61,846 nucleotides of DNA. It comes from a virus (taxonomy: Duplodnaviria; Caudoviricetes). Of the stretch, positions 2,271 to 27,400 are shown in pieces. The notes under the pieces were generated by a model, which was not told the DNA's origin, did not search any database, and was given only the letters and a program-made list of their open reading frames with translations. The translations under genes were made by a program, and so were the position numbers. How positions within the stretch are numbered: the stretch's first letter is position 1; each line of letters opens with the position of its first letter. The DNA is taken from the IMG/VR virus record IMGVR_UViG_3300030329_003801, positions 1 to 61,846 of that record, one strand, 5' to 3'.

Positions 2271-3548
2271 ATGGCATACGTAGGACAAGAAATTAAAGGA
2301 GGCACGTTTAGTGTACTAGATACAAGTGGAAACACTTATAATGGTTCTAATGTAACTTTTAATTTAGGTACTCATGTATCTTCACCGGCACAGCTCATAG
2401 TCTCACATGACGGCGTAATTCAAAAACCCGTAACAGATTATACTTTAGCTACAGGTGGAACACAAATTACATTTACAACTGCTCCTGCAAGTGGAGCATC
2501 AATATTTATAACAGAAATATCTGGTGCAGTAGGTGCACCAATGAACCGTGATATAAATGGTGATGAATTAATTTTAGATGCTGATGCAGATACAAGCATT
2601 ACAGCAGATACAGATGATCAGATAGATGTTAGAGTTGGTGGTACAGATCAAATTACAATCAAGGACGGAGCACTTTCTCCAGTGACAGATAATGACATTG
2701 ATTTAGGAACATCAAGTTTAGAATTTAAAGATGCATACTTTGATGGAACGGTGACAAGTGACGCAGGTTTATTTGATACACTTGGTGTTGGAACTGCTAG
2801 GGATTTAGGAACTTTACATGTTAGATCTGCCGATAGTGGAGGAGGTGCAAACACAAGTGCTGATGAATTAGTTGTTGAAGGAAGCGGTCATGCTGGAATG
2901 ACTATTTTAAGTGGCAATACTAATCAAGGTGGTATTTATTTTGGTGATGATGGTGATGATAATATTGGATATATAGTTTATAATCATAATGGTAATTCAA
3001 TGTCTTTTGCTGCCAATGCTTCTGAAATGATGCGTTTGACCAGTGATGGTGATTTAATTGTAGGTGGTACAGCATTAAATGCAGAAGGAGGATTAGCTGT
3101 AGAAGTTAATGCTTATAATGGAGCAACAAGATTAAGTTGGAATAGAGCATCAGGACAAAGCAGTAATACATCAGTAGTACAAGAATTTAGACACGCAACA
3201 AGTGTAGTTGGTAGTATTTCTCATACAAATTCTTCAACAACTTTTGCGACATCATCAGATTACAGATTAAAAGAAAATGTATCTTATACTTGGGATGCAA
3301 CCACAAGATTAAAACAATTAAAACCAGCAAGGTTTAATTTTAAAGTAGATAAAGATAAAGATGACGAGGTTACCAGAATTGTTGACGGATTTTTAGCACA
3401 TGAAGTATCAGGTGTAGTTCCAGAAGCAGTTGTAGGAGAAAAAGATGGAGCAGAAATGCAAGGAATTGACCAAGCTAAAATTGTTCCATTATTAGTTAAA
3501 ACTATTCAAGAACTTGAAATACGAATTAAAACATTAGAAGATGCTTAA
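2271..3548 (+). CDS. Tail fibre protein with C-terminal peptidase S74 chaperone
   Basis: N-terminal HDGVIQKPVTDYT..ITFTTAP module; SSDYRLKENV..LKPARF..GFLAHEV..VPEAV..LLVKTIQEL S74 motif. Confidence 0.85.
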   Translation: MAYVGQEIKGGTFSVLDTSGNTYNGSNVTFNLGTHVSSPAQLIVSHDGVIQKPVTDYTLATGGTQITFTTAPASGASIFITEISGAVGAPMNRDINGDELILDADADTSITADTDDQIDVRVGGTDQITIKDGALSPVTDNDIDLGTSSLEFKDAYFDGTVTSDAGLFDTLGVGTARDLGTLHVRSADSGGGANTSADELVVEGSGHAGMTILSGNTNQGGIYFGDDGDDNIGYIVYNHNGNSMSFAANASEMMRLTSDGDLIVGGTALNAEGGLAVEVNAYNGATRLSWNRASGQSSNTSVVQEFRHATSVVGSISHTNSSTTFATSSDYRLKENVSYTWDATTRLKQLKPARFNFKVDKDKDDEVTRIVDGFLAHEVSGVVPEAVVGEKDGAEMQGIDQAKIVPLLVKTIQELEIRIKTLEDA

Positions 3549-3560
3549 TGCTTCTAGGTC

Positions 3561-3704
3561 ATGGTTAAAAGAACAAGTACAAGAGACATTTATTTTACAT
3601 CAATTAAAAAAAGAACAAGTATAGGTAATTCTACTCGGAGCAAACCGAAAAACAAGCACAAGAGGAGGAATTGGAAAAAGTACAATAGACAAGGGAAAAA
3701 ATAA
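3561..3704 (+). CDS. Small basic protein (47 aa)
   Basis: MVKRTS...KKRTSIGNSTRSKPKNKHKRRNWKKYNRQGKK*; TAATG-coupled to next gene. Confidence 0.6.
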   Translation: MVKRTSTRDIYFTSIKKRTSIGNSTRSKPKNKHKRRNWKKYNRQGKK

Positions 3705-4483
3705 TGAAATTTATTACAAAAAATTTAATATTATTACTTATACTTATTACTATAGTAGTATTTTCTAAACCAATAGTAGCAGACTCAACGAATGACCAAA
3801 ATACACAAACGAATACTTCAGGCAGTAACACGAATATTACAGGTGGGTATCAATCGACTACTACCAACAATAACGATGGACAAACAAATACAACGACAAC
3901 AACATCTACCACCACTAATAGCACAACTGGGTCAGATATCCCCGTTAATTCTGCCAACAGCCCAAGTTTCTCTTCTATGTCTCAAGATGTGTGTAGCATG
4001 GGTGTTAGCGGCTCCCTTTCTACTCTCGGGGTTGGTATATCTGGTGGCAAGCACGTCAGGGACTTAAATTGTGAGAGAATAAAACTTTCAAAGGTACTGT
4101 ATGACTATGGTATGAAAGTTGCGGCTGTGTCAATTTTGTGTCAAGATGAGAGAGTTTTTGAAGCTATGCAAATGGCAGGAACTCCTTGTCCATTTGAAGG
4201 TAAGATTGGTAAGGAAGCATTAGACCAATGGAATAAATATGACATTGAGAGACCAGATTATGATTCTTATGTATCTAAATTAGAAAATCGTTCTCGTATA
4301 GATGAAGAATTAGCAGAGATTGTTAAACAAAAAGAATTAGAAAGAATAGCAGAAGAACAAAGAATTGCTGAAGAAAAAAGAATAGAAGAAGAAAGAATTG
4401 CTGAAGAACTAAGAATAGCAGAAGAAAAAAGATTATTACAAGAAGAAAAAGATAACAAACCTTCAATACAAGTACATGATTGA
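3704..4483 (+). CDS. Exported protein with Thr/Asn-rich region, Cys-containing domain and charged repeat tail
   Basis: N-terminal signal/TM segment; SQDVC..D.NCERIKLSK.L...GMKVAAVSILCQD.RVF.AM..AGTPCP; EExRIAEE repeats. Confidence 0.75.
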   Translation: MKFITKNLILLLILITIVVFSKPIVADSTNDQNTQTNTSGSNTNITGGYQSTTTNNNDGQTNTTTTTSTTTNSTTGSDIPVNSANSPSFSSMSQDVCSMGVSGSLSTLGVGISGGKHVRDLNCERIKLSKVLYDYGMKVAAVSILCQDERVFEAMQMAGTPCPFEGKIGKEALDQWNKYDIERPDYDSYVSKLENRSRIDEELAEIVKQKELERIAEEQRIAEEKRIEEERIAEELRIAEEKRLLQEEKDNKPSIQVHD

Positions 4484-4554: not shown

Positions 4555-4815
4555 ATGTGGAGATGGACAGCACTTGTTACATATTTAATTATATGTGTGT
4601 ATGACTTTGTTGTAGTGCCTGTATGGTATGGTTTAAATAGACCAAACATACAAATGTTTGTTGATATACTTAACACAGTTGAAGACCCATTAATACAATT
4701 AGAATTAATGAAAAAATTAACTGGTCAACACAATCCTTTTACCTTGATGGGTGGAGGATTATTTCATTTAGCCTTTGGTGCTTTATTAACAGGAACAGCG
4801 ATAAATAAAAAATGA
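4555..4815 (+). CDS. Two-TM membrane protein (holin-like)
   Basis: Two hydrophobic segments; WRW..YLIICVYDF.V.P..PFTL.GGGLFHLAFGALL. Confidence 0.6.
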   Translation: MWRWTALVTYLIICVYDFVVVPVWYGLNRPNIQMFVDILNTVEDPLIQLELMKKLTGQHNPFTLMGGGLFHLAFGALLTGTAINKK

Positions 4816-6728
4816 GATTAATAACTTTATTTATTTTACTTAGTTTTAGTCTTAATGCTGAAACAATAACAACAGGAAATTTACTTCCTAACTCTGGAGA
4901 TGGAGTAGATTGGGGTTCTAGTAGTACAGACCAAATTCATCCAGATTCTGGTTCTGGTTATGTAAGTAATGGTAGTACAATAAATGGATTTGATATTAAT
5001 TGTTCTACTTCTCAATCTAACTGTGGATATAAATATAGTGTAGGTGGTGACTTTGAAGTTACTGGAACAGCAACAGTAAGCGTAGACGATATAGCATTAA
5101 CAAATAATTCTATTAATCAATCTATGCTTGATAATGGGATAATATTAAATAGTTATGTTGATGTTGCAAACTGCGAAAGCACACAGGGTAATTGTGAATC
5201 TAAAGGTGGCAATAATGATTCTCATACAACAACTGTAAAATTAAAAAATTCTAGTGGAACTGTATTAAGTACAACAACACAAACAAGAACAGAAGTTACA
5301 GGATTTCACGGCAATTGTAATGGTTATCCTAATTCAAGTGCGTCTGGTGTAACAGCAGGATGTGGTCAATACAATGACAGAATTATTTATAATGATGTAG
5401 GAAGTAATAAAGTAGATTGGTCTTGGTCTGGTACAGATAGTAATTACACAAATCAATCTAGACAAGGCCCAAATTTATTAGGTGCATCTTTAACGATGAC
5501 CTATAATAATACAGAGTATGACCCTATTGATGACAGCACACAAGATGTTATTGATGACATTGATGATTCCATTGATGATGCTGTTGATGATATAATTTTT
5601 GAAGATGATTATACTTTTGATGATTCATGGTATGATGAGCAGTATACTTGGTATGAAGAAGATTACACTTGGGAAGATGATTTTTATTTTGAAGAAGAAT
5701 ATGATACATCTTTTGAAGAAGGAACTTCATTTGAAGAATTTGAAATGGAGGAGTTTGACGAAATAGCCTTTGAAGAATTCGAGATAGAAGAATTTGAAAT
5801 GGAAAATTTTGAAACTTTTGAAGAAATGCCTGTGATGGAAGAGGTATTTTTTGAGGAGGATTTCACTGAAACTCCAATAATGGAGGAAATATTTGAAGAA
5901 GAATTTGAAGAAGAATTTGCTGATTTTCTAGAAGAAACTGGCATGGAAGAAGAATTCATGGAATTTCTTGAGGAAGAAGGTATAACAGCAGAAGAGTTCT
6001 TTGAAGAAGTCATAGAAGAAAGTTTTGAGGAAGAGTCTGACTTTGTAGAACCTACAGAGGAGGCTTTAGATGAAGAAATTACTGACGATAATATGGAAGA
6101 GAATACAGAAGTCATGGCTGAAGAGTCAGAGACTGAAGAAAGCTCATTCGAGGTTGCTTCAAATGAGGAAGAAACAATGGAGGAGTCCCCAAGTAATGAC
6201 GGGGAACTAGAAGAAGACGATGGACAAGTATCAGAAGAACCTAATGAAGAAAGCGAACCCAATAGCGAAACTTCTGATGAGTCCGACATTTCATCAACAG
6301 ATGAAGATGAGCAAGAAGACGTACAACCGGAAGAAGATAAAGACATTAAAGGAGGAGACTTTAAAGGAAAAGTAGACATAGCAAAATTTGAGAAAAAACT
6401 AAAGAAAGACATAAAGAAATTAGTTCAACAAGTTAAGGCTAGCACTCAAAACTTATCTAAAGAAGATATATTCTTTAAAAGTAACAATAATTTAAACGCC
6501 TATCTCAAAACTGATTTTTATAAACCAAAAGATATCTATACAGAACAGAATTTGGATTTATTTAATCAGATAGATTTAGGCGTTTATGACAGAGATATTT
6601 ACACAACTGTAACTCTTGCCAGTTATGTAAATAATGACCCTGTTGAAAAACATAACAAAAAATTAAAAGAAATAAAAATAAAGAAACAACAATTATTGAT
6701 TGAATTGGAGGCATTGAGAAAAAAATGA
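4812..6728 (+). CDS. Exported protein with Cys-containing beta domain and very acidic low-complexity region
   Basis: Signal peptide (LNA/E); about 270 residues dominated by D/E; basic C-terminal coiled coil. Confidence 0.75.
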   Translation: MRLITLFILLSFSLNAETITTGNLLPNSGDGVDWGSSSTDQIHPDSGSGYVSNGSTINGFDINCSTSQSNCGYKYSVGGDFEVTGTATVSVDDIALTNNSINQSMLDNGIILNSYVDVANCESTQGNCESKGGNNDSHTTTVKLKNSSGTVLSTTTQTRTEVTGFHGNCNGYPNSSASGVTAGCGQYNDRIIYNDVGSNKVDWSWSGTDSNYTNQSRQGPNLLGASLTMTYNNTEYDPIDDSTQDVIDDIDDSIDDAVDDIIFEDDYTFDDSWYDEQYTWYEEDYTWEDDFYFEEEYDTSFEEGTSFEEFEMEEFDEIAFEEFEIEEFEMENFETFEEMPVMEEVFFEEDFTETPIMEEIFEEEFEEEFADFLEETGMEEEFMEFLEEEGITAEEFFEEVIEESFEEESDFVEPTEEALDEEITDDNMEENTEVMAEESETEESSFEVASNEEETMEESPSNDGELEEDDGQVSEEPNEESEPNSETSDESDISSTDEDEQEDVQPEEDKDIKGGDFKGKVDIAKFEKKLKKDIKKLVQQVKASTQNLSKEDIFFKSNNNLNAYLKTDFYKPKDIYTEQNLDLFNQIDLGVYDRDIYTTVTLASYVNNDPVEKHNKKLKEIKIKKQQLLIELEALRKK

Positions 6729-15461: not shown

Positions 15462-18400
15462 ATGACACCCTTAGAGCAGCTAAGATCCAATAAGCCAGAT
15501 TTGTACGGCATAGCAGAATCCCAACTAACGGATATGCTATGGGATCAACTCGGCAAAGACAAATACGCAGACGAAAGTATATTCCGTGAATACTTGACGA
15601 CAGATACGGGACTGTTTGATAAGTCAAGATTAAAAACAATCACACCTACAATTGAATCAGAACAACAAGTCCTTCCAGAAGAGAAGGTAGACGAAGAGGT
15701 ATCACCATTTCGTCAAAAAGAATATTGGGTAGATGTTCTTCAGAATATAGCCCAACAAGCTGTTACAACAACTGGACTGACAATGCAGGGGATGTCTGGC
15801 CTTAAAGCATTTTCAGAATTACCAGAAGAAAAACAGAAACTTGTTTTTGCTGAAGATACGGCACTTTACAAAACTTTTAAAAAACTTGGTTTATTAAATG
15901 AGGATGACAAACTAGATCTTTCTTGGTTGCCATCGGAAGATCGTGAAATAGGATATTTAAGAGAAAAATCAACAGAAATATTAGCTAATCCTGATTCTTA
16001 TACTGATGATAGAATAGAATGGGCAAAAAATACACAACAATTTTTACAGGATAGAGAAGAAGCAAGAGTTGATATAAAGGACAGACCGTTATATAAAGCT
16101 GGTGAAAAAGTTCAAGAATGGGGTAAAGAAGCTATTCCTATTGACCGTGAAAAATGGTCACAAAATTATCTTGCTAATCTTTTATTAGATACAACAGGAG
16201 TAATTGGTTCAACGCTTCCGTTCATTGCAACAGGCATGGTTGGATCTTCAATTAGAGTTGGTGCGGTAACACTTGCTCTTCCAGCAACAATGTCTGTAGG
16301 TGCAGGAGAGGCTGTAGAAAGAGCTTATGATTATCAGGAGCAAGACGGAGTAAGAAACGAAGATGATATTGCCATTGCGGCTATTCTTGGTACAGTTCCG
16401 GGTGCTGTTGATTACATGCCTGTTGGAATATTATTAAATAGATTTAATCATTATAGACCGGAAGGTAAAAAATTTATAAGAAGATTTCTTGAAGCGGCTG
16501 TTTCTCAAGGATTGTGGGAAGGTACTACAGAGGAAGTTCAACAATTTCTGCAAAATATGATTGCTCAAGATTATAATGCTAATCAAAAACTTAGTGAAAA
16601 TCTTGGAAAACAATTCCTTCCAGCTTTTCTTGGTGGTGGAATTATGGGTGGTATTGGTATGTCAGGAAAGACTACCCCTACAGATCCAAAAGATGAAATT
16701 AAAGAAAAAGTAATTGACAAAGAAATAGGCGATAAACCAACAGAAGAACAAAAGGAAAAAGCTGATGAAGGCAGTCCTGATGAAGTAAAAAAAGATTTTT
16801 CTCCTGATGGATTTCCACCTGTTGGAGCAACAAACATTGATGTTAATGAAGCTGGTGTTGACATAGGAAACGGAAAAATTATTTCTTATGACCGTGATCC
16901 AGAAGATGATTCCATGCATGTTAAAATGGAGATGGAAGATGGGACAATTATTGATCGTCCTGTTGATGAAATTGACATGGTGTGGAATGATAGACCAGAT
17001 GTAGATCTTCCTGAAGGAGCACCTTTAACAAAAGCACAACAAGAACAGTATGATGCGGCTGAACCCGGAACGATTGTTACTATTACTAATGAAGATGGTC
17101 AAGTTGTTCAGTATATGGAAAAACCTGCTGTTGCTGAAGAAGAGGTAATACCAGATGAGGAAATAACAGAAGAACAGGCGGCACAAAGAGATAATCATCA
17201 ACAGGCAGATAGTTCTTTTTGGACAACTCTTTATACTATTCAGCAAAAATTAGGTGATGAGTCTGCTGAAAGATACTTTAATGAAGCTATAAAAAAAATG
17301 AAGTTTCCTCCTGTAGATAGGGAAACAGGGGAAAGACAAACTTGGGAAGATGTAAAGGATGATTTAAGAAAAAATCCAGACAAATATGCTGGTTATGGAG
17401 GCACAACTGTTGCTAATCAGGAATGGCTTAACATGCCTGTGGGAAATGCTCGAAGTTTTTTTAAAGCACATAAATGGATACACACGCAGGCTGGTGAGGA
17501 AATGCTTCCCATTCCGGAAACGGATGAGGAATTTTTCCAGCAACAAGAAGAAAAAAGAAAACCTAAAGAAGAAGTAGCATCAGTTGAAGAAGAGGTAACT
17601 CCTGTTGAAGAAGTAAAAGAACCAAAAACAAAAGTATTAACTGATAATATTAAAAAATTAGGTGACTGGAATAATGTATTTGAAGCTAATAAAGAAAATG
17701 AAGATGCAGTAAATCAATTAACAAATTTTAATCTTGAAGATTTAATAGAATATGAAAATAATGTTACTGTATTAAATCAAGCTAAAAATAAATTATATAA
17801 AACTAAAGCACTTGGCGATAATACTGTTGCAAAAAGCAATATTCAATTAGTTCAAAATAGAATAGCTGAACTAGAAGGTAGACCAGTAGAAGAAGTAACT
17901 CCTATTGTAAAACCTGTTGAAGAAAAGAAACCAAAAGAATTTATAGATGAAATATTATCTAGTAAAGAAACAGAAGAAAAAGTTGAGGAAAAAGTAGAAG
18001 ATAAAACAACTGGTGCAGAAGAATTAGCTGGAATGAATAATGAGCAAATTGGTTCTTTAATAGATGATATTGTTAGTGAAGTTGAAGTAGAAGAAAAAGC
18101 ACCAGTTGAAAAGAAAGTTGTAGAAGAAAAAGTTAAGGAAATAGTTGAAGAAGCAAAACCTACACAACAAATATCTGCTAAATATTTAAAATCAAAAGAA
18201 CCAATAAAATTAAAAAGTCAAAAAGCAAGAGGAGAGGAATTAGCGTCTGTTTTTTTAGATGCCGTTCCTTTAAATAAAAATGCAATAATTGAAGAATTAA
18301 AATCTATAGGTATTGATAAAGTATTAAATTTAAAACAAATTCAAGATAATATAAATAATATTAAAAAACAAGCATTAGATTTAAATATTATAAATGATAT

Positions 18401-21400
18401 AAATATTTCAAATGAAGAATTATTTGCTGAAATTATATTAAAAAATAATGCAGAGTCCATAAAAGCAAATAAAAGAAGAGTAGAAGAAGCTGAAAAAATA
18501 GGTATAACAAAAGAGGAATTGAAAAAAGAAAGTTTTGCTACTTTAGCAAAATTAGCAGATAATAATTATGTAAAGAATATACAATCAGATCAAGGAATTA
18601 CTGCTTTTTTAGTAAGATTTTTTAATAATGCTAAAGCATTAAGTTTAGGATACAAAAGAGGTAGTGGTGAAAGATTAGCAAATGATTTTGAAATGTTACT
18701 TTATCATGTTCCTTTTATTGATACTAAAAATTATCAAGAAGTTTTAGCAGTACAAAATTTAAGAGCAAATTACAAATTAAAAAATAATAAACAAATATTT
18801 AATGATTTAGTTAATAAAAAAATAACTGCATCAGATATAGTAAAACAAGTAGAAGCTCCTTCTGAAATTAAGGTAGAGGGATATACAAAACCTTTTAATA
18901 ATATAGGACAATGGAATAAAAGTGCAATTTCAAAATCAGATATTGTACATGATAAAACACCTACTGGTAAACCGAAAGGAAATGTAACTAACCGAAAAAA
19001 TGCTTATGAGACATTATTAGATCTTATTAATACAGATATATCTGTACTCATTAATAAAGAAAATAATGTTGGATTACTTAATGTAACAAAAGGCGTATTG
19101 GAGAAAAATGCATATATAAATTATTCTGAAACTGGTTTAAGTCAATATTTTATTGGATCTGAAGGTATCACTCCTAAAAATGTAAAATCAAATTTAGAAT
19201 CCGTTAATGATAGAATTGCAGAAATAAAAGGGGAAAAGAAACCTGTAGCAGAAGAAAAACCTAAAGTAGAATTTGTTCCTCTTAAAAATGCTAAACCGGA
19301 AGAGTATTTTGATTTGTTTGAAACAGATCCAAAAAAATACGATAAAAATATTCCTGAAATGTTTACGATTAATTATAATAAGAATGAATCTGTTAGGGAG
19401 GAATCATATACTGATCTAATTTTAATACCTGTTGATGATGCGTTGAAATTAATAAATACACCTAAAGCAGAATCTTTAGTTGAAGGAAGGGTTGATTCCA
19501 TAAAAAAAGATATAGTTTCTGGAAGAAAAATAACAAAACTTACTACTGCTTTGTATATGGGAATTGAATCTGAACATTTGAAAAAAGCAGGTGGAAATCT
19601 ACCGAATATAATTGAACCTGATTCATCCGGTTCTATGATTAGAGGTGGTTCTGAAGGAAGACATATTGTCCACGCATTTAAGGAATTAGGCATAGATAAA
19701 GTTCCATTTGTATTAACTGCCGATGGTAAACCCGGTGAGTTTAAATTTAGACATAAGAATAATTGGAGGCCAAATTATGTTATTGTTAATGAAACTCAAC
19801 CAACTTTTCCAGATAAAAAAGTTTCTACAAAAAATTGGATTTATTATTCTGATCTAGTAGAAGAAAAACCTAAAGTAGAACTCTTTAAAGAAAAAGAAGT
19901 TGTTTCTGAAAAGGGAGGTATTTGGAGAAGAAAAGGCCTATATTATGTAAACAGTGACTATAAAAATTGGAGAGTTCATAAGGTTGGTTTTACCCCTCTT
20001 AATCCTTGGCAGTTTGATTATCTTACCCCTGAAGGAAACTGGCAATTTATTGGAACTTATTCAAAGGTTGGAATATCACAAGGATGGATTGAAAGATTTG
20101 CTTTAGCATTTGAACAAGATCCCTCAAAGTTTCTAGGAAGTAGAATGGGAACTTTCCAAAACAAAAGTGGAGAAGGAACCAAAGAAAGAGAATTTACATT
20201 TGCTTTTAACACAAAATGGACTAAGGATCTTTTTGAAAAATTAAATCCAAAATTAAATAAGGAATTAGGTGATCAATTTCTTCCTAGTGGTAATAAGATA
20301 GGAGAATATTACATATATATTACGCCAAGAAAATACGAGGAAAGACCAGAACTTGATATAGCTACTCGTGATTTTTATAAAAGATTATATAAAGAAGATT
20401 GGGTTCAAGGAACGAATATTAAAGGTGAGTATGATATAATATTTACAAAAGAAAAACCTAAAGTAGAAACTCCTAAACCTATATTCTCTCTTTCTGGAAC
20501 TAAACCAGCAACTACGCCTGATAATTTAACAACGATAGATTATAAGACAGAAATTGTACCATTAAGTCAACTTATTACATCAGACAATAAAAATAAATTT
20601 CCTCAAGTATTACAGCCAAGGGAAAGAGATTCTAAGCCATCTGAAATGCAGGTGGAACTTATTGCTAAAAATCCAAAAGCAGACTGGCTTGGTGAAGAAA
20701 ATAGAACTGATCAAGGTGCTCCTATTGTTGGCCCAGATAATGTTGTTGAAAGTGGTAACGGTAGGGTAATGGGTTTAAGATTATCCTCCAAACAATTTCC
20801 TACAGAATTTCAAAAATATTTACAGGACATAGCAGTAGATATTGGAACAGATACAGTAGAACAAAAGAAAATTGCTGATACTTTAGAAAAGAAATTTAAC
20901 GAAGGAGATCCTTCTATTGTTGTAAGAAGAAGGGTAACTTCTTTTTCTGAACAAGAAAGAATTAAGTTTACACAAGATTCTAATTCATCAAGTCTTTTAA
21001 CTAAATCACCTGCTGAACAAGCTAGGATTGATGCCTCTAGAATGCCAGAGGGACTTATTGATTTGTATGAAGGTGGATTGGTAGCACTGGAAAAAAATCG
21101 TGAATTTGTAAGAGGATTCTATAATATTATTCCTAAAAATGAACAACGAGAAATATTAGATGATGCTGGTGATCTAACACAAAATGGAGTTAGAAGAATT
21201 GAAAATTCTTTAATTATAAGGGCTTTTGGAGATATTAGTTTATTTAACAGAATAGCAGAATCAACTACTCCAGAGGTTAAGGCATTAAGTGAATCATTCT
21301 TAATGGCAGCACCTAGATGGATTAAGTTAAGAGAAAGTGTAGAAAGTGGCGTAATACCTAAAGAATTTGATTTAACTTATCATGTTATTGATGCTGTTAA

Positions 21401-24400
21401 TCAAATAAGACAAGCAAGAAAAAAGAACATGCCTTTTTATTCTTTTTTAAATCAATATTCATTTCTGGATACAGGAGAAATACATCCTTATACAAAATTG
21501 TTGTCTACGGTATTTTATCGTGGTAAAGATTATAAGAATTTAGAAACTGCGGACAATATATCTAAAGTCCTATCCCAATACGCCGATAGTTCACGAAAAT
21601 TTGATGATCTTTTTTTAAACGAACAAACCCCTGCACAAATATTAGAGCGTTCAATATTGAATGTTAAAAAAGAAATTTTACCAATTACGGAGGAAGAATT
21701 AAATGGCTACAGAACAAAAGCAGAACAAGTTTCCCCAACAAGACCAGAATCCGATGCAGTATTTCTGGGCGAAAAAGGGGAAAGAAACATTGACTTTGGT
21801 AATGTCAGAGAAACAGGAGACTCTCTCCGAGCAGGAGTACCTGACGTTGCTGAAAGACCGAGTCCAGAACTTAGCAGAGAAGAGCAAGAACGTTTGGGAG
21901 AATCTTCAGAGCGTATTACCGAATCAGGAACTGGCCCTATTAACAGACTGGCAAGAGAGCAAGAGTCTAGGGAATCTGGGAGAAGACCTGATAACGCACA
22001 GCCTGAACAGTTGGATGAATTTACCTCTGGAGCTGAACGAGGTAAAGTTTCCGATACAAGTGAATCAAGACAACAATCTGAAAGAGATTTACAATACGAC
22101 CAACTTGCTAGAGTGGCTTCATCAAAGCTATCCCAAGTATTAGATAAAGTAACAATTAGAACAAAAGAAGGTTCTAGAAAACTTACTCCAATAGAAAAAG
22201 AAAATGTTATTGATGCTTTAACTTTATCAAGAGATTCTTATGTAGAAAAATTTACTGATGAAGGTTTAGGTGGCATTGTTGATATTAAAGGTAGAGTAAA
22301 CTTTACTGTACCTGATTTTGTTAAAAACTTTGAATTAACTGTTGAAGAATTATCATTACCTCCTGAATTAGCTAAAGTTAGAGATAATATTGTTAAAGAT
22401 TTTGCTCTTCCCTATGGGGTAGAAGAATTTGATAGATCTGAAAAAATAAAAGTTAGTAATTGGATTAATATATTTGATCAAAGACTTCCTGAAGATAATA
22501 ATTTTACTCGTGAATATTTAAACTCCAACATTGTTAATACAGCTATTAATAATAAATTTGGGAATCTTCCTAATCCAAGAAAATATTTTTTACAAAAATC
22601 AAATGATTCATTAAAGAATCTTATTAAAGCATTAAAAGAAATTTCAGAAGAATATAAAAGAAAACCTCCCGTTCCTCTTAGTGCAGATGTATCTCCTGAT
22701 GTTAAAAACAAAGATTATAAAAAAGCTAAACCTTTTTTTGAAAAATCTTGGGCTGATGCAAAAGATGCTGGTCTAGGAATAAATGAATGGTTAAGACAAA
22801 TAATAGCAGATCTAAAAAAAGCATTTGGAAAAGTTAAAGAACATCTTAATATAGCTTTATCACATTTAAAAAGATTTGCACAAAGTCTAAGACAAGGTTC
22901 TCTTACTAATACAACTAAAGAAGGAGAGCAAAGTAAATATCAATTAAAACATACGCCTATAAGTAAAGCTAAAAAAATGGAAACATTTACTCCTATTGAT
23001 TTAGATGGACATCTAAAAAAAGGAATGAATGATCTTAGAAAACGAAGAGGAGATATTGATAGATTTGTAACAACAGAGCTTGATTACAAAGATGAAAATG
23101 AAATGGTCAATAACCTTGGAGCTGAACAGGTTGAAGCTGTTGCTCTTGCAATTGATCAATTAGATAGTGGAAAAGGATTTGTTCTTGGTGATCAAACAGG
23201 TGTAGGAAAAGGTCGTGTAGTTGCAGCAATGCTACGATGGTCTAAATTAAGAGGAAAGAATGCAGTATTTGTAACGCAGAAACCTGCTTTATATGCTGAT
23301 ATGATTCGTGACTTAAATGATATTGGTGAAAATATTCAGGATATAAAAATACTTCCAACAAATAATGGTTTAAATATTGATGTTAGTGATGTACCAACAT
23401 TTGGGGAAATTGTCACACCAAGTAAAAAAGAACATGAACAAGAATTAGATAGATTAACAAAATTAGGTAATATGGAAGAATACGATTATGTATTTACTAC
23501 CTATGACCAAATGAATAGAATTGGTGGTAAAATAGATACTCGTCATCAATTCTTAGAAACAATTGCAGAAAATTCTATATTTATTCTTGATGAAAGTCAC
23601 ACAGGTGGAGGACAAGGAATAGGTAAGTTTTCTTCTGTTCCTTTTGATTCAGTTGGAATGACACGAGCTGATTTTCTAAGAGATTTGTTAAGAAGATCTC
23701 AAGGTGCTATGTATTCATCAGCAACATGGGCAAAGAATCCAAAGGTTATGGATTTATATTTAAATACCGATATTCAAGATTCTATTCCAGATGCAGAAGA
23801 GTTTATTGATACTATGATAAAAGGAGGTCTTCCTTTACAATCTGTTGTATCTAATATGTTAGCTGAAACTGGTCAATATAGAAGAGTGGAAAAAAGTTTT
23901 CAAGGTATAAGATTTAATACTGTTGAAATTAATATAGATAAAAAAGGTTTAACTGAAACAGCGAATAATCTTTCTTCTGTTTATCAAGACCTTGTTTCTT
24001 TAGATAGAAAAATTTCAGCTATTACCAGAGCATTAATAAATATTGATCCTGTATTACAAGAAGCAAGAAAAAAAGGGGCTAAAGTTCAAATAACACCAAG
24101 TAATTTTAAATCTCAAATGCATTATATTTCTGGACAGTTAATGACTGCTATGAAAATAAAAGAAGTAGGTGAGATGGCAATTAAAGAACACAAAGCTGGA
24201 AGAAAGCCAATGATTGTTTTATCAAGAACAATGGAGGCTTTTCTTACGCAATATGCTGCTGAAAATAATCTTAAATCAGGAGATGTCATTAACTTAACAT
24301 ACAATGATCTCTTACTTAAATATTTAAAACGATTAAAACAATTTAAAGTAAAAATAGAAAAGCAAAAAGTTGCAAGTATAGGAACACATCAAGCAAAAAT

Positions 24401-27400
24401 TGTTAATAGAGAACCTGTCTTTATATTAAACAATTCTTCTATAGAAAATATTGCAGAAAGTCTTGGTTATGGAGATATTATAGGAGAATTTAATGCATTA
24501 GAACAAAAAATAAAATCTTTAGATTTTAAAGATTTAAGTGTTAAACCTATAGATGATCTTATTGTTACTTTAGAAAATGCTGGGATAAAAGTTAGGGAAC
24601 TAACTGGTCGTGGTATGACTATTACTAAAGATAACAAATTAAAATCTAGAGCTAATAGCCCATCTGTTATTCGCAATGGTGTTAATGAATTTAATGCTGG
24701 AGAAGTAAATGCTCTTGTAATGAATAGAACAGCAGGAACAGGATTATCTATGCATTCTAGTGAATCATTTGCTGATCAAAAACAACGTCATATGATTGTC
24801 TTAGAAGCAGAACCTAATGTTACAGATTTTGTTCAAATTTTAGGTAGAATAAATAGAACTGGACAAGTTATTGTTCCTCAGTATTCATTGTTTAATACAA
24901 GTCATCCAGCTGAAAAAAGAATTGCGGCAATGCTGGAAAGAAAAATGGCATCTCTTAATGCTTCAACAAGTGGATCAATTAAAAATGATTATAGCGTTAA
25001 GGGTATTGTAGACTTTATGAATGCGGCTGGTGATAAAGCCGTAAGGGAATTTTTGCAATCTAATGCAAGTATGAGATCTTTGTTTACTAATTCAGATAAA
25101 GAATTAGAAGAAATAACAGGTATAGCTGATGCTGTAGCTCGTGGATTATTAATAATGGATCCAGCAACAGCTAATAAATTTTATGATTTTGTTTTAAAAA
25201 GATATACAGAAATTAAAGAAGAAGAAACAGGACTTGGTATTAATAAGAATAATATTATTATTATGCCAGATACTCAAGCTGTAACAACCGAACAACAAGA
25301 ATTACATGATGGATTATCTGATGGAAGCCCTTTTCAAAAGCCAGTATATCTTGATAATATTACTATGAAAAAAGTTGTTAAACCTTATACTGTAGCTCAA
25401 TTAAGAAAGAAAATTGAAGATGTTCTTGAAGGAAAAAATATTCAACAATTTTCAGCAAATGAAATTGCAGAAACAAGAAAAGTTTTTGAAGAAGCTATTA
25501 ATGAAGTAAAAACAAAATTTCAAACAGAGACTGAGGATATTGTAGATCCAAAGAAAAAAACTGAAAAAGAACATCGATCAGCAAAAGAAATAAAAAGATT
25601 AGAAACACTCTGGACTGCAATAGAATCACATATTGCTAAATATCCAATTGGTTCTACTATTCAAATAAGAGTTGGAAAAGAAGAAGAGTCTCCTGTTTAT
25701 GACGGAATGGTTATTAATAGAAAAAGAGATACTTCAAAGAATCCTGCAACATCAGGAGCAATACAAATAACACTTGCTTTGGCAAATGGAGAAACACAGC
25801 AAGTAACTGTTGCTCTTTCTCGTTTTATTAAGAATGATGGAACAAGCGGTGAGTCTATATTACGATCAGTTGAATCATCTAAAGTACAAGAATTATTTAC
25901 ATCAGGACAAAAAGAAACAACTGAAGAAAGACATCTTATAACAGGAAATCTTTTATTGGGATCAAGTTTAATTAAAGGTGGAAACTTTGTTAACATTCAG
26001 AAAAGAGTAGGTGATACAGCAGAATTTGATCAGGTGATTGGTATTCTTATGCCTAAAACATTTGATGTTAAAAAAGCTATTGAAAATATGCCTTTTAAAT
26101 TTGGTAGTGAAGAGGAAGTATATCAGTATTTTGTTGAAGCTGGAAAAAATGCTAAAGTTAAAAATTACAGAGGCGATATTGAAATATTTGCCGCTCCGTC
26201 TTTACCCAATGTAGCTTTCATAAGAGTTAAGAAAAGTGCAAAACTTATATTAGAAAATGAAGCTATAACAAATAGACTTCAAAATGGATGGAAGAAAATG
26301 ACTGGGGAATTTAGTCATGCAGGAAGAATTTCTCTCGTGGAAAATGCACCAAATAAAAGTAGCTTGTATGATGTTCTACAGCATATGCATGAACTAGGAA
26401 TTAAATTTCAAACAGTAACTAATCGTGAAGCTGCTCAAAGTGCAAAAGATAATGTTAGACCAAACAATGCTGGAGAAGGCGGTAGTGTTGGTGCAATGAA
26501 AACACCAAAAGATCTAATTGACTCTATAAAGGATGAAACAAATGTTAGCCGTAATTCCCTGTTCAAGAGAATAAGAAACAGTATGACTTCAATGGCACAA
26601 TCTGTCAATGAAAGATACAGTGCAAGAAAGAATCCTAGAGTTGGAGAAACAAGACAGTTTAATAGCAGAACTAATGAACATGCTGATAATATTATTATGC
26701 CAGAGGTTAATGATAGTATTAATATTAAAACAGGCATATTCCCAGCAATAACTACTGGTATGTTAAAAAAAATATTACCACCATTTGTTGTTGCTAAAAG
26801 ATTTGCAGATAAAACTATTTTTGATTTTGTTAGAAAAGCAATTGCAGCACAGGCAATGATAAGAAAAGTTGGATATAGATTAGAGGATGATTTTTTAAGT
26901 ATTAAAAGAAAATACAAGAAAGCAGATTTTAATAAAGTTGTTGATATATTGTGGTCTGGTGATTCAGCAGGAAGAATATTTACCGCCAAAGAATTAAAAG
27001 AAGGATTTACATTTACAAAAGAGGAAAAGGCAGAGTTAAAAAAACAAGGACACAGTGCAAAAGAAATAAACAGAGCTGAAAAAGAAAGTAAGTTTACTGA
27101 CGATGAAGTTGCAATGTACTTGGAAATGAGAAAACTATTTGAAAAAATAGGAAGGTATATTGATAAACATAACTTTAATATGGTTCCTTTCATAAGAAGA
27201 ATGAAAACACTTCGCAAGAAACAAATGGAATCACAGGTTAATCCAGAATTTCTTAATGATTTAAGAACATTGTTTGCAAGAAAGTTTTTATTGGAAAGAC
27301 AATTTAGAAATAACATTGGTAATCCAGAATTATTACGACAAGAACTTCAATCAATTGATGAACAAATATTATCTATTCCTTTAATAAAGTATAGTGATGC

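Follow-up and report, generated by a model that had tools for sequence, protein, structure and literature searches.

A probable conserved gene embedded out of frame in the linker of a giant polyvalent-protein gene of tailed phages

The virus record IMGVR_UViG_3300030329_003801 of IMG/VR (Duplodnaviria; Caudoviricetes) was analysed over its positions 1 to 61,846, and this whole stretch of 61,846 nucleotides is called the window in the following. It carries a giant gene, hereafter the host gene, which contains in its +1 frame a second open reading frame (ORF) of 146 codons, located between the sequences for a ParB domain and a helicase module (Table 1). In an earlier note, made from the letters of the window alone, this ORF had been proposed to be a real gene within a gene, provided with a ribosome binding site of its own. 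The proposal is borne out by the conservation of the ORF, by its Shine-Dalgarno (SD) sequence and by frame-specific substitutions, and we consider the ORF at 21703..22143 to be, with a probability of about 0.88, a genuine and translated gene embedded in a giant polyvalent gene. This figure refers to the existence of the gene and excludes its function.

The locus and the embedded open reading frame

The features of the locus are summarized in Table 1. The embedded ORF follows directly upon a stop codon of its own frame, an arrangement that is not universal, as the P0086 lineage reads through at this place. The next longest same-strand alternative frames in the host gene reach 69 codons from stop to stop; the nested frame had been described before as far longer than its competitors, which is correct, while their maximum had been put too low at 66. 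The earlier observation that the GGAGG is made from uncommon host codons agrees with the codon usage of the host gene, in which ACG accounts for 21 of 272 threonine codons and GAG for 58 of 441 glutamate codons. GGAGG is used 5′ of many genes of this phage.

Table 1. Coordinates of the embedded gene, its signals and the features of the host gene in the window
Feature	Position	Strand	Remarks
Embedded gene	21703..22143	+	146 codons and TAG stop; +1 frame of the host gene; product P0002
Shine-Dalgarno sequence GGAGG	21689..21693	+	9 nt 5′ of the nested ATG; host codons ACG-GAG-GAA
TAA stop in the +1 frame	21700..21702	+	directly abuts the nested start codon
Host gene, phage polyvalent protein of 4823 aa	15462..29933	+	ORF list, translation, Pfam domains
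ddrB-like ParB domain, host aa 1690-1802	20529..20867	+	Pfam PF18763, E = 1.9e-22
Linker in the host frame, aa 2081-2228, read through the embedded gene	21702..22145	+	R/E/S/G-rich, hydrophobic-poor
Strawberry-notch-type helicase module	23109..25073	+	Pfam AAA_34, aa 2550-2828; Helicase_C_4, aa 3031-3204

Stops in the +1 frame can arise only from host codons of the type NTA or NTG, and a linker poor in hydrophobic residues is therefore predisposed to an open +1 frame. For this reason a null model was chosen in which the host protein was held fixed and the synonymous codons were resampled. When the resampling was extended over the whole gene, a +1 ORF reached 146 codons or more in 1 of 2000 trials, and when the synonymous codons were permuted within the region alone, zero stops were obtained in 0.3% of 20000 trials. 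The GC content at third codon positions of the region is 0.25 compared with 0.118 expected from the amino acids, and leucine is encoded there by CTG, TTG, CTC and CTT and not by the usual TTA. The sequence and these tests confirm an open +1 frame of 146 codons with GGAGG 9 nt before its ATG, and the length of this frame is far from chance.

The antisense frame at 21707..22237 (minus strand) is open over 176 codons and was considered and rejected as a gene. Among the relatives described below it is open in L004 and broken in L002 and L008, and it is therefore regarded as a by-product of the dual-coding composition.

Frame-specific constraint in relatives

Two relatives of the host protein, ~81-82% and ~59-60% identical over the queried region, were found, and their DNA is represented by the loci L002/L003 and L004-L006; a further locus, L001, is identical to the window. 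In L002-L006 the ATG, the stop codon, the length of 146 codons, the GGAGG and the preceding stop are identical to those of the window. A control +1 ORF of 67 codons at 20566..20769 carries three stops in L004.

Nucleotide differences were counted by codon position in intervals of 49 codons along the codon alignment. In every well-aligned interval of the flanks host position 3 was the most variable, with 9-27 differences between the window and L002 and 16-30 between the window and L004. In the three intervals of the overlap the differences at host position 3 fell to 2, 5 and 1 (L002) and to 11, 4 and 5 (L004), host position 1, which is position 3 of the nested frame, became the most variable one, and the usual pattern was back in the interval right after the nested stop. 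Per site, changes affecting only the host protein were accepted at 0.17-0.32 and those affecting only the nested protein at 0.06-0.16, a difference of about twofold.

Among all pairs of the 41 unique loci of the wider family, only 6 fall into a divergence band of 4-30%. For these, differences in the overlap were counted by nested position 1/2/3 and those in the flank, i.e. the adjacent helicase, by host position 1/2/3, the flank of the pair L002-L004 being taken from the 49-codon intervals. The counts in overlap and flank were 12/11/27 and 16/9/50 for L031-L023, 11/11/26 and 16/8/48 for L023-L030, 3/4/11 and 7/1/19 for L031-L030, 19/19/29 and 27/15/79 for L039-L040, and 18/19/32 and 26/13/75 for L047-L040. 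The signature of a nested position 3 that is most variable together with a frozen host wobble position is thus present in three independent clades.

The two frames differ in composition, with 19% glycine and 12% hydrophobic residues in the host frame compared with 32% hydrophobic residues in the nested frame. By raw BLOSUM score the host frame comes out ahead (median 59 versus 44, with the nested frame higher in only 137 of 435 pairs), which is due to its low complexity. The order is reversed when scores are corrected by shuffling: the nested z score then exceeds the host z score in 314 of the 435 pairs, and the nested frame reaches z values of at least 5 in 132 pairs, compared with 16 pairs for the host frame. 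With host codons resampled, the +1 frame was open in 0 of 5000 trials for L008 and at frequencies of 0.0002 for L065, 0.01 for L027 and 0.016 for L033. In the reverse test, in which the nested codons were resampled, the host frame was open in 0 of 5000 trials for the window, L008, L027 and L065 and at 0.0002 for L033.

The substitution patterns indicate purifying selection on the nested frame, as had been suggested for examination in homologues by the earlier note. Taken with the resampling results, they indicate that both frames are kept open and that selection acts mainly on the embedded one. The host frame had been described in that note as degrading to an R/E/S/G linker over exactly this span; the linker is indeed there, but it does not merely degrade, as it is actively kept open: of 5000 resamplings of the nested codons, 0 left it free of stops.

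Distant homologues and the family upstream of Strawberry-notch helicases

In the viral contigs L007 and L008 a nested homologue of 146 codons, 36% identical to the product of the window, is located in the +1 frame of a giant ORF. In L008 its start codon is a GTG that abuts a TGA and is preceded by AGGAGG at a distance of 6 nt, and the host frame over the overlap is again a linker, rich in E, R, S, G and T. A blastp comparison of the window host protein with that of L008 gave no similarity across the overlap, and local alignment of the two loci gave a z score of 19.6 for the nested frame versus 3.9 for the host frame. Stops in the +1 frame were looked for in close homologues, and the frame is open, with start and stop kept, in all homologues examined (L002-L008).

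Sequence and profile searches revealed gene calls on short contigs which are 25-39% identical to P0002 and share common motifs with it. A profile search of 1.84 billion proteins yielded 8 matches, and the public protein sets hold the nested family as 10 clusters, the calls of which stem from short contigs. Scans of viral_contigs with the host segment of the window and with the A4 subgroup, and a scan of genome_contigs with A3, yielded no relatives. Two of the database proteins, P0085 and P0088, each combine a half in the linker frame with a half in the nested frame of a single locus, probably owing to assembly indels, and P0080 ends in an unrelated tail resembling adaptor-derived sequence.

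For the analysis of the wider family, 80 viral loci with a related helicase were fetched, and six-frame ORFs of at least 50 aa were collected from all 90 loci (n = 6396). The first pass of the family profile gave 10 extra weak matches, each of them in the +1 frame and immediately 5′ of the helicase. The iterated profile converged at 55 matches with E ≤ 1e-3, again all in the +1 frame of the host ORF and 5′ of the helicase; among these ORFs it had 0 matches in any other frame or strand. A profile match is present in 43 of the 78 loci L013-L090, the GC content of which ranges from 0.30 to 0.70. In 11 further loci of this set, a giant host ORF has a +1 ORF of 114-156 codons at the equivalent place which is not recognized at E ≤ 1e-3 (L016, L029, L035, L042, L050, L051, L053, L055, L056, L057 and L090; at ~3480-4020 in most). 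The probability of an open frame under resampling was 0.018 for L042, 0.087 for L055 and 0.23 for L090. These 11 ORFs may belong to the family and have diverged strongly, or they may form a second embedded family. A free-standing copy of the embedded gene was found in none of the 90 loci. Judged by these matches, the embedded ORF is a member of a real and so far unannotated family distributed across many uncultured phages.

Translation start sites and transcript data

At the family start site all 41 of the 41 unique loci have a start codon, ATG or GTG. Of these loci, 37 carry an SD core of at least 4 nt at a spacing of 3-12 nt, and 20 carry a core of 5 nt or more, compared with 2-10 and 0-4 of the 41 loci, respectively, in eleven shifted control windows of the same frame. 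The conservation of the SD sequence, which the earlier note had named as a point to be checked, therefore holds for the family and not only for L002 and L004, where GGAGG is identical; the spacing is 6-9 nt. Slippery heptamers of the type XXXYYYZ were found close to the start in 2 of 31 loci and close to the end likewise in 2 of 31. Promoter-like or terminator-like sites are not in excess, and this holds for promoter-like sites upstream of the nested ATG. Since start codon and SD sequence are conserved, heptamers are rare and there is no excess of promoter-like sites, internal initiation on a late mRNA is the most likely route, and the small protein is probably made by initiation at the conserved SD sequence and ATG or GTG.

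The host gene and its neighbourhood

The genome carries head, portal, terminase, tail-fibre and DNA-ejection genes, and its large terminase (TerL) shares no more than 45% identity with the terminases of cultured phages. The neighbours of the giant gene match PHROG families of tail fibre, virion structural and DNA-ejection proteins, and the giant gene is positioned after the ejection-protein genes. Homologues of the host protein are annotated with LPD, InPase, ART-PolyVal and PLxRFG domains. In the accessible part of PMC5512222, polyvalent proteins are described as multi-domain giants of phages and conjugative elements that serve as counter-defence arsenals. With its ddrB-ParB, AAA_34 and Helicase_C_4 domains, its virion and ejection neighbours and its place after the ejection genes, the host gene fits the polyvalent-protein class of that source.

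Pfam scans of 16 further host ORFs gave variable domains upstream of the embedded ORF (2′-5′ RNA ligase-like, LPD5/LPD1, InPase or a distant ddrB-ParB) as well as downstream of it (LPD39, ART-PolyVal, RadC), and the embedded ORF itself lies just before AAA_34/Helicase_C_4 in 16 of these 16 ORFs and likewise in L008. For the L008 host protein, Pfam gave no match to the ParB domain. Since L008 gives no ParB match and the upstream domains vary among the relatives, the adjacency to ParB is incidental. Of the earlier placement of the gene between ParB and helicase, only the helicase thus stands as a constant neighbour.

The giant gene is a mosaic with a swappable middle. The residues 893-2364 of the giant protein (~18140..22553, including ParB) have no blastp counterpart in the L008 host protein, while homology to it extends over the residues 2-514, the residues 721-893 and the C-terminal 1900 aa; in L002 and L004 the segment upstream of ~20500 is almost unalignable with the window. 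Further antisense ORFs were noted in the window. Within the giant gene, 26435..27346 (minus strand) is open over 303 codons, 293 aa from its ATG; an antisense ORF of this length occurred in 3.5% of 400 synonymous resamplings and is therefore not remarkable. A 242-aa antisense ORF at 5684..6412 (minus strand) lies within a 638-aa gene at 4812..6728.

The predicted small protein

P0002 has 146 aa, a mass of ~17 kDa, an isoelectric point (pI) of 4.95, no cysteine and a polar N-terminus without signal-like features. The family as a whole is acidic (pI 4.3-5.7), and its first ~18 residues are poorly conserved and predicted to be disordered. Structure prediction by AlphaFold2 with 14 diverse members gave a predicted local distance difference test score (pLDDT) of 83.8 and a predicted template modelling score (pTM) of 0.79, while only 6 close sequences gave a pLDDT of 41. 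The model consists of a disordered N-terminus, a small beta-hairpin and subsequent helices forming a helical bundle. Foldseek searches against PDB and BFVD gave best hits with E > 1 and a template modelling score below 0.25, and ESM Atlas held no usable match for P0002 or the L025 member. A single co-folding job with the nested protein and the host residues 2364-3210 gave a score of 0.00, which speaks neither for nor against binding.

Alternative explanations

Several observations weigh against the reading given above. GGAGG is also frequent inside genes (54 copies on the plus strand). The region is T-poor (20% versus 28%), a composition that would itself keep stops rare; above a GC content of 0.46 the open +1 frame of a single locus does not reach significance (P 0.09-0.28), and the 435 pairs compared are not phylogenetically independent. 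Of the 11 unrecognized +1 ORFs, 9 are missed by the profile (E > 10), and L016 and L029 are borderline at E = 0.008. In 24 of the 78 loci (L044, L058-L063, L066, L068, L069, L073-L082 and L084-L087) a stand-alone helicase ORF of ~1020 aa is present with neither an embedded ORF nor a profile match. It follows that the helicase core does not need the embedded gene, and that the gene goes with the fused giant form and not with helicase chemistry. The RNA library data for the region consist of two contigs of 151 nt (21985-22135 and 22218-22368), from a library in which 9% of the sampled words were present, and are silent on starts and translation; a second run gave short partial pieces only. DNA and protein searches of cultured phages with the region and two family members found no cultured relative; 50,697 phage records searched by tblastn with two family members gave no match. 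As to function, there was no match in Pfam, PHROGs, NCBIfam, PADLOC, PDB sequences, Foldseek searches of PDB and BFVD, or ESM Atlas.

The T-poor composition is also the basis of the explanation that the ORF is a compositional artefact, i.e. that a T-poor and hydrophobic-poor linker, short of NTA and NTG codons, produced a long ORF without a gene. Stops in the +1 frame need host codons for L, I, V or M, the antisense frame is open too, and the open frame of the GC-rich relatives lacks individual significance, all of which would be expected of an artefact. This explanation is rejected by the resampling with the host protein fixed, and the control +1 ORF and the antisense frame, which share the gene, are broken in L004 and L002, respectively. 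It further leaves the frozen host wobble position and the periodicity in the nested frame without a cause, as well as the conservation of the protein across DNA of 30-70% GC, the start signals and the confidently predicted fold, and we regard it as hardly credible. Equally little credence is given to the idea that the synonymous constraint is caused by an element acting at the level of the nucleotides, such as a structured RNA or a signal for recombination or packaging. Divergence does drop in the overlap, to 0.05-0.08 versus 0.11-0.29 in the flanks (window versus L002), but the constraint has a three-base periodicity in the nested frame, the similarity of the amino acid sequences persists across the same range of GC contents, and promoter- or terminator-like sites are not in excess.

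The +1 segment might instead be reached by programmed ribosomal frameshifting, giving a truncated N-terminal isoform of the giant protein with an alternative C-terminal domain, as in lambda G/GT. SD-like sequences can stimulate frameshifting, and the weakly conserved, presumably disordered first residues of the family would suit such an origin. The +1-frame stop that abuts the start codon in L008 and the window clade, the conserved ATG or GTG with an SD sequence at 6-9 nt and the scarcity of heptamers argue against it. On the heptamers near the start and the stop directly before the conserved start, a product of the G/GT type was ruled out, and frameshifting in general is very improbable.

The preferred reading thus remains that of an embedded gene with its own start. 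The host frame provides a low-complexity linker joining variable upstream modules to the Strawberry-notch helicase module, while the +1 frame encodes an acidic protein of ~17 kDa with a predicted fold. Made from one late mRNA, the small and the giant protein would therefore appear together in time and place. By analogy with small accessory proteins that assist the loading of giant anti-restriction proteins into the capsid, we tentatively favour, at somewhat less than even odds, a role of the small protein as a partner dedicated to the giant one, e.g. as a chaperone in assembly or packaging or in regulating its helicase-containing part. Almost the same likelihood is given to an independent anti-defence role, although taken by itself it is rather doubtful: the gene would be real, its product would act alone on the host cell as an anti-defence or takeover factor, e.g. 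as an acidic mimic or inhibitor, and the gene would merely be lodged in a disordered linker that tolerates it, the two proteins having no physical link. The acidity of the family, the existence of stand-alone helicases without the embedded gene and the tolerance of linkers to overprinting are consistent with this, as is the counter-defence character of polyvalent proteins (accessible part of PMC5512222). Against it stands the position of the gene, which is fixed beside the helicase module while all other domains vary, and the gene is never free-standing in the 90 loci nor found in cultured phages.

A more far-reaching version of the partner role is unlikely. It holds that the small gene is the older frame, that the giants arose by reading through it so that the linker is the overprint, and that the small protein is an obligate cis-encoded chaperone or packaging adaptor. 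If this were true, the ejected giant protein could not be loaded or kept inactive without the small protein, which would then be a universal but hidden subunit of such counter-defence weapons of phages.

Relation to known systems

Embedded genes are known in phages from Rz1 and from phiX174. In lambda, Rz1 is fully embedded in the +1 frame of Rz, and the products work as a pair. The gene described here resembles Rz/Rz1 in that a complete phage gene is embedded out of frame with its own start signals and, as inferred here, on a shared late mRNA. It differs in that Rz1 is a secreted lipoprotein, whereas P0002 has neither a cysteine nor a signal-like N-terminus, and its host is a polyvalent linker and not a lysis gene. 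An o-spanin of the Rz1 type was ruled out on the same grounds, namely the missing lipobox cysteine, the polar N-terminus and the nature of the host gene.

The genes B, K and E of phiX174 are overprinted genes of a small virus. As in the overprints of small viruses, two proteins are encoded by one stretch of DNA, the synonymous sites of one frame are constrained and one frame is compositionally biased. Unlike in those, low complexity is here a property of the long host frame, whereas the embedded frame is better conserved and its product has a predicted fold, and the family is found at 30-70% GC in large genomes of tailed phages with no obvious pressure on genome size. Overprinted genes are reviewed in PMC8227390.

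A model for the proposed partner role is provided by the Dar system of phage P1, whose accessory protein Ulx (17 kDa) is listed, in the accessible part of PMC9024508, as aiding the localization of the 250-kDa helicase-containing DarB into the head. P1 Ulx (L091, 6996..7436) has 146 aa, as does P0002, and its gene abuts the giant helicase gene darB, so that in both cases a protein of this length is encoded beside a giant helicase-bearing protein of the capsid-packaged counter-defence type. Unlike the embedded gene, the ulx gene is separate and non-overlapping, and homology between the two proteins was rejected (hhalign probability 0.8%, E 0.074).

With polyvalent proteins as presented in the accessible part of PMC5512222, the host shares its giant multi-domain architecture, the ddrB-ParB domain, the Strawberry-notch SWI2/SNF2 ATPase and a position among virion genes, and polyvalent-type domains (LPD, InPase, ART-PolyVal, RadC) occur in its relatives. 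An embedded gene is not described in that part of the source, where "nested" denotes a hairpin fold and "reading frame" neighbouring small ORFs. For the embedded family itself no description was found in the main texts of open-access papers and bioRxiv, the supplements of which could hold annotations. What is new is a family spread over phages of 30-70% GC, in which the embedded frame is the better conserved one, its product has a predicted fold, and the linker of a giant injected protein serves as the host.

Implications

Gene finders discard ORFs inside longer genes, and standard annotation therefore misses the embedded family. The family represents an unusually clear case of long-lived dual coding in a bacterial virus and reverses the usual picture of the overprinted protein as young and disordered. 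It thereby offers a natural test bed for the way in which two proteins share one sequence. For the polyvalent proteins, the multi-enzyme proteins that phages inject, the embedded gene adds a component that had not been recognized and that is tied to the helicase module.

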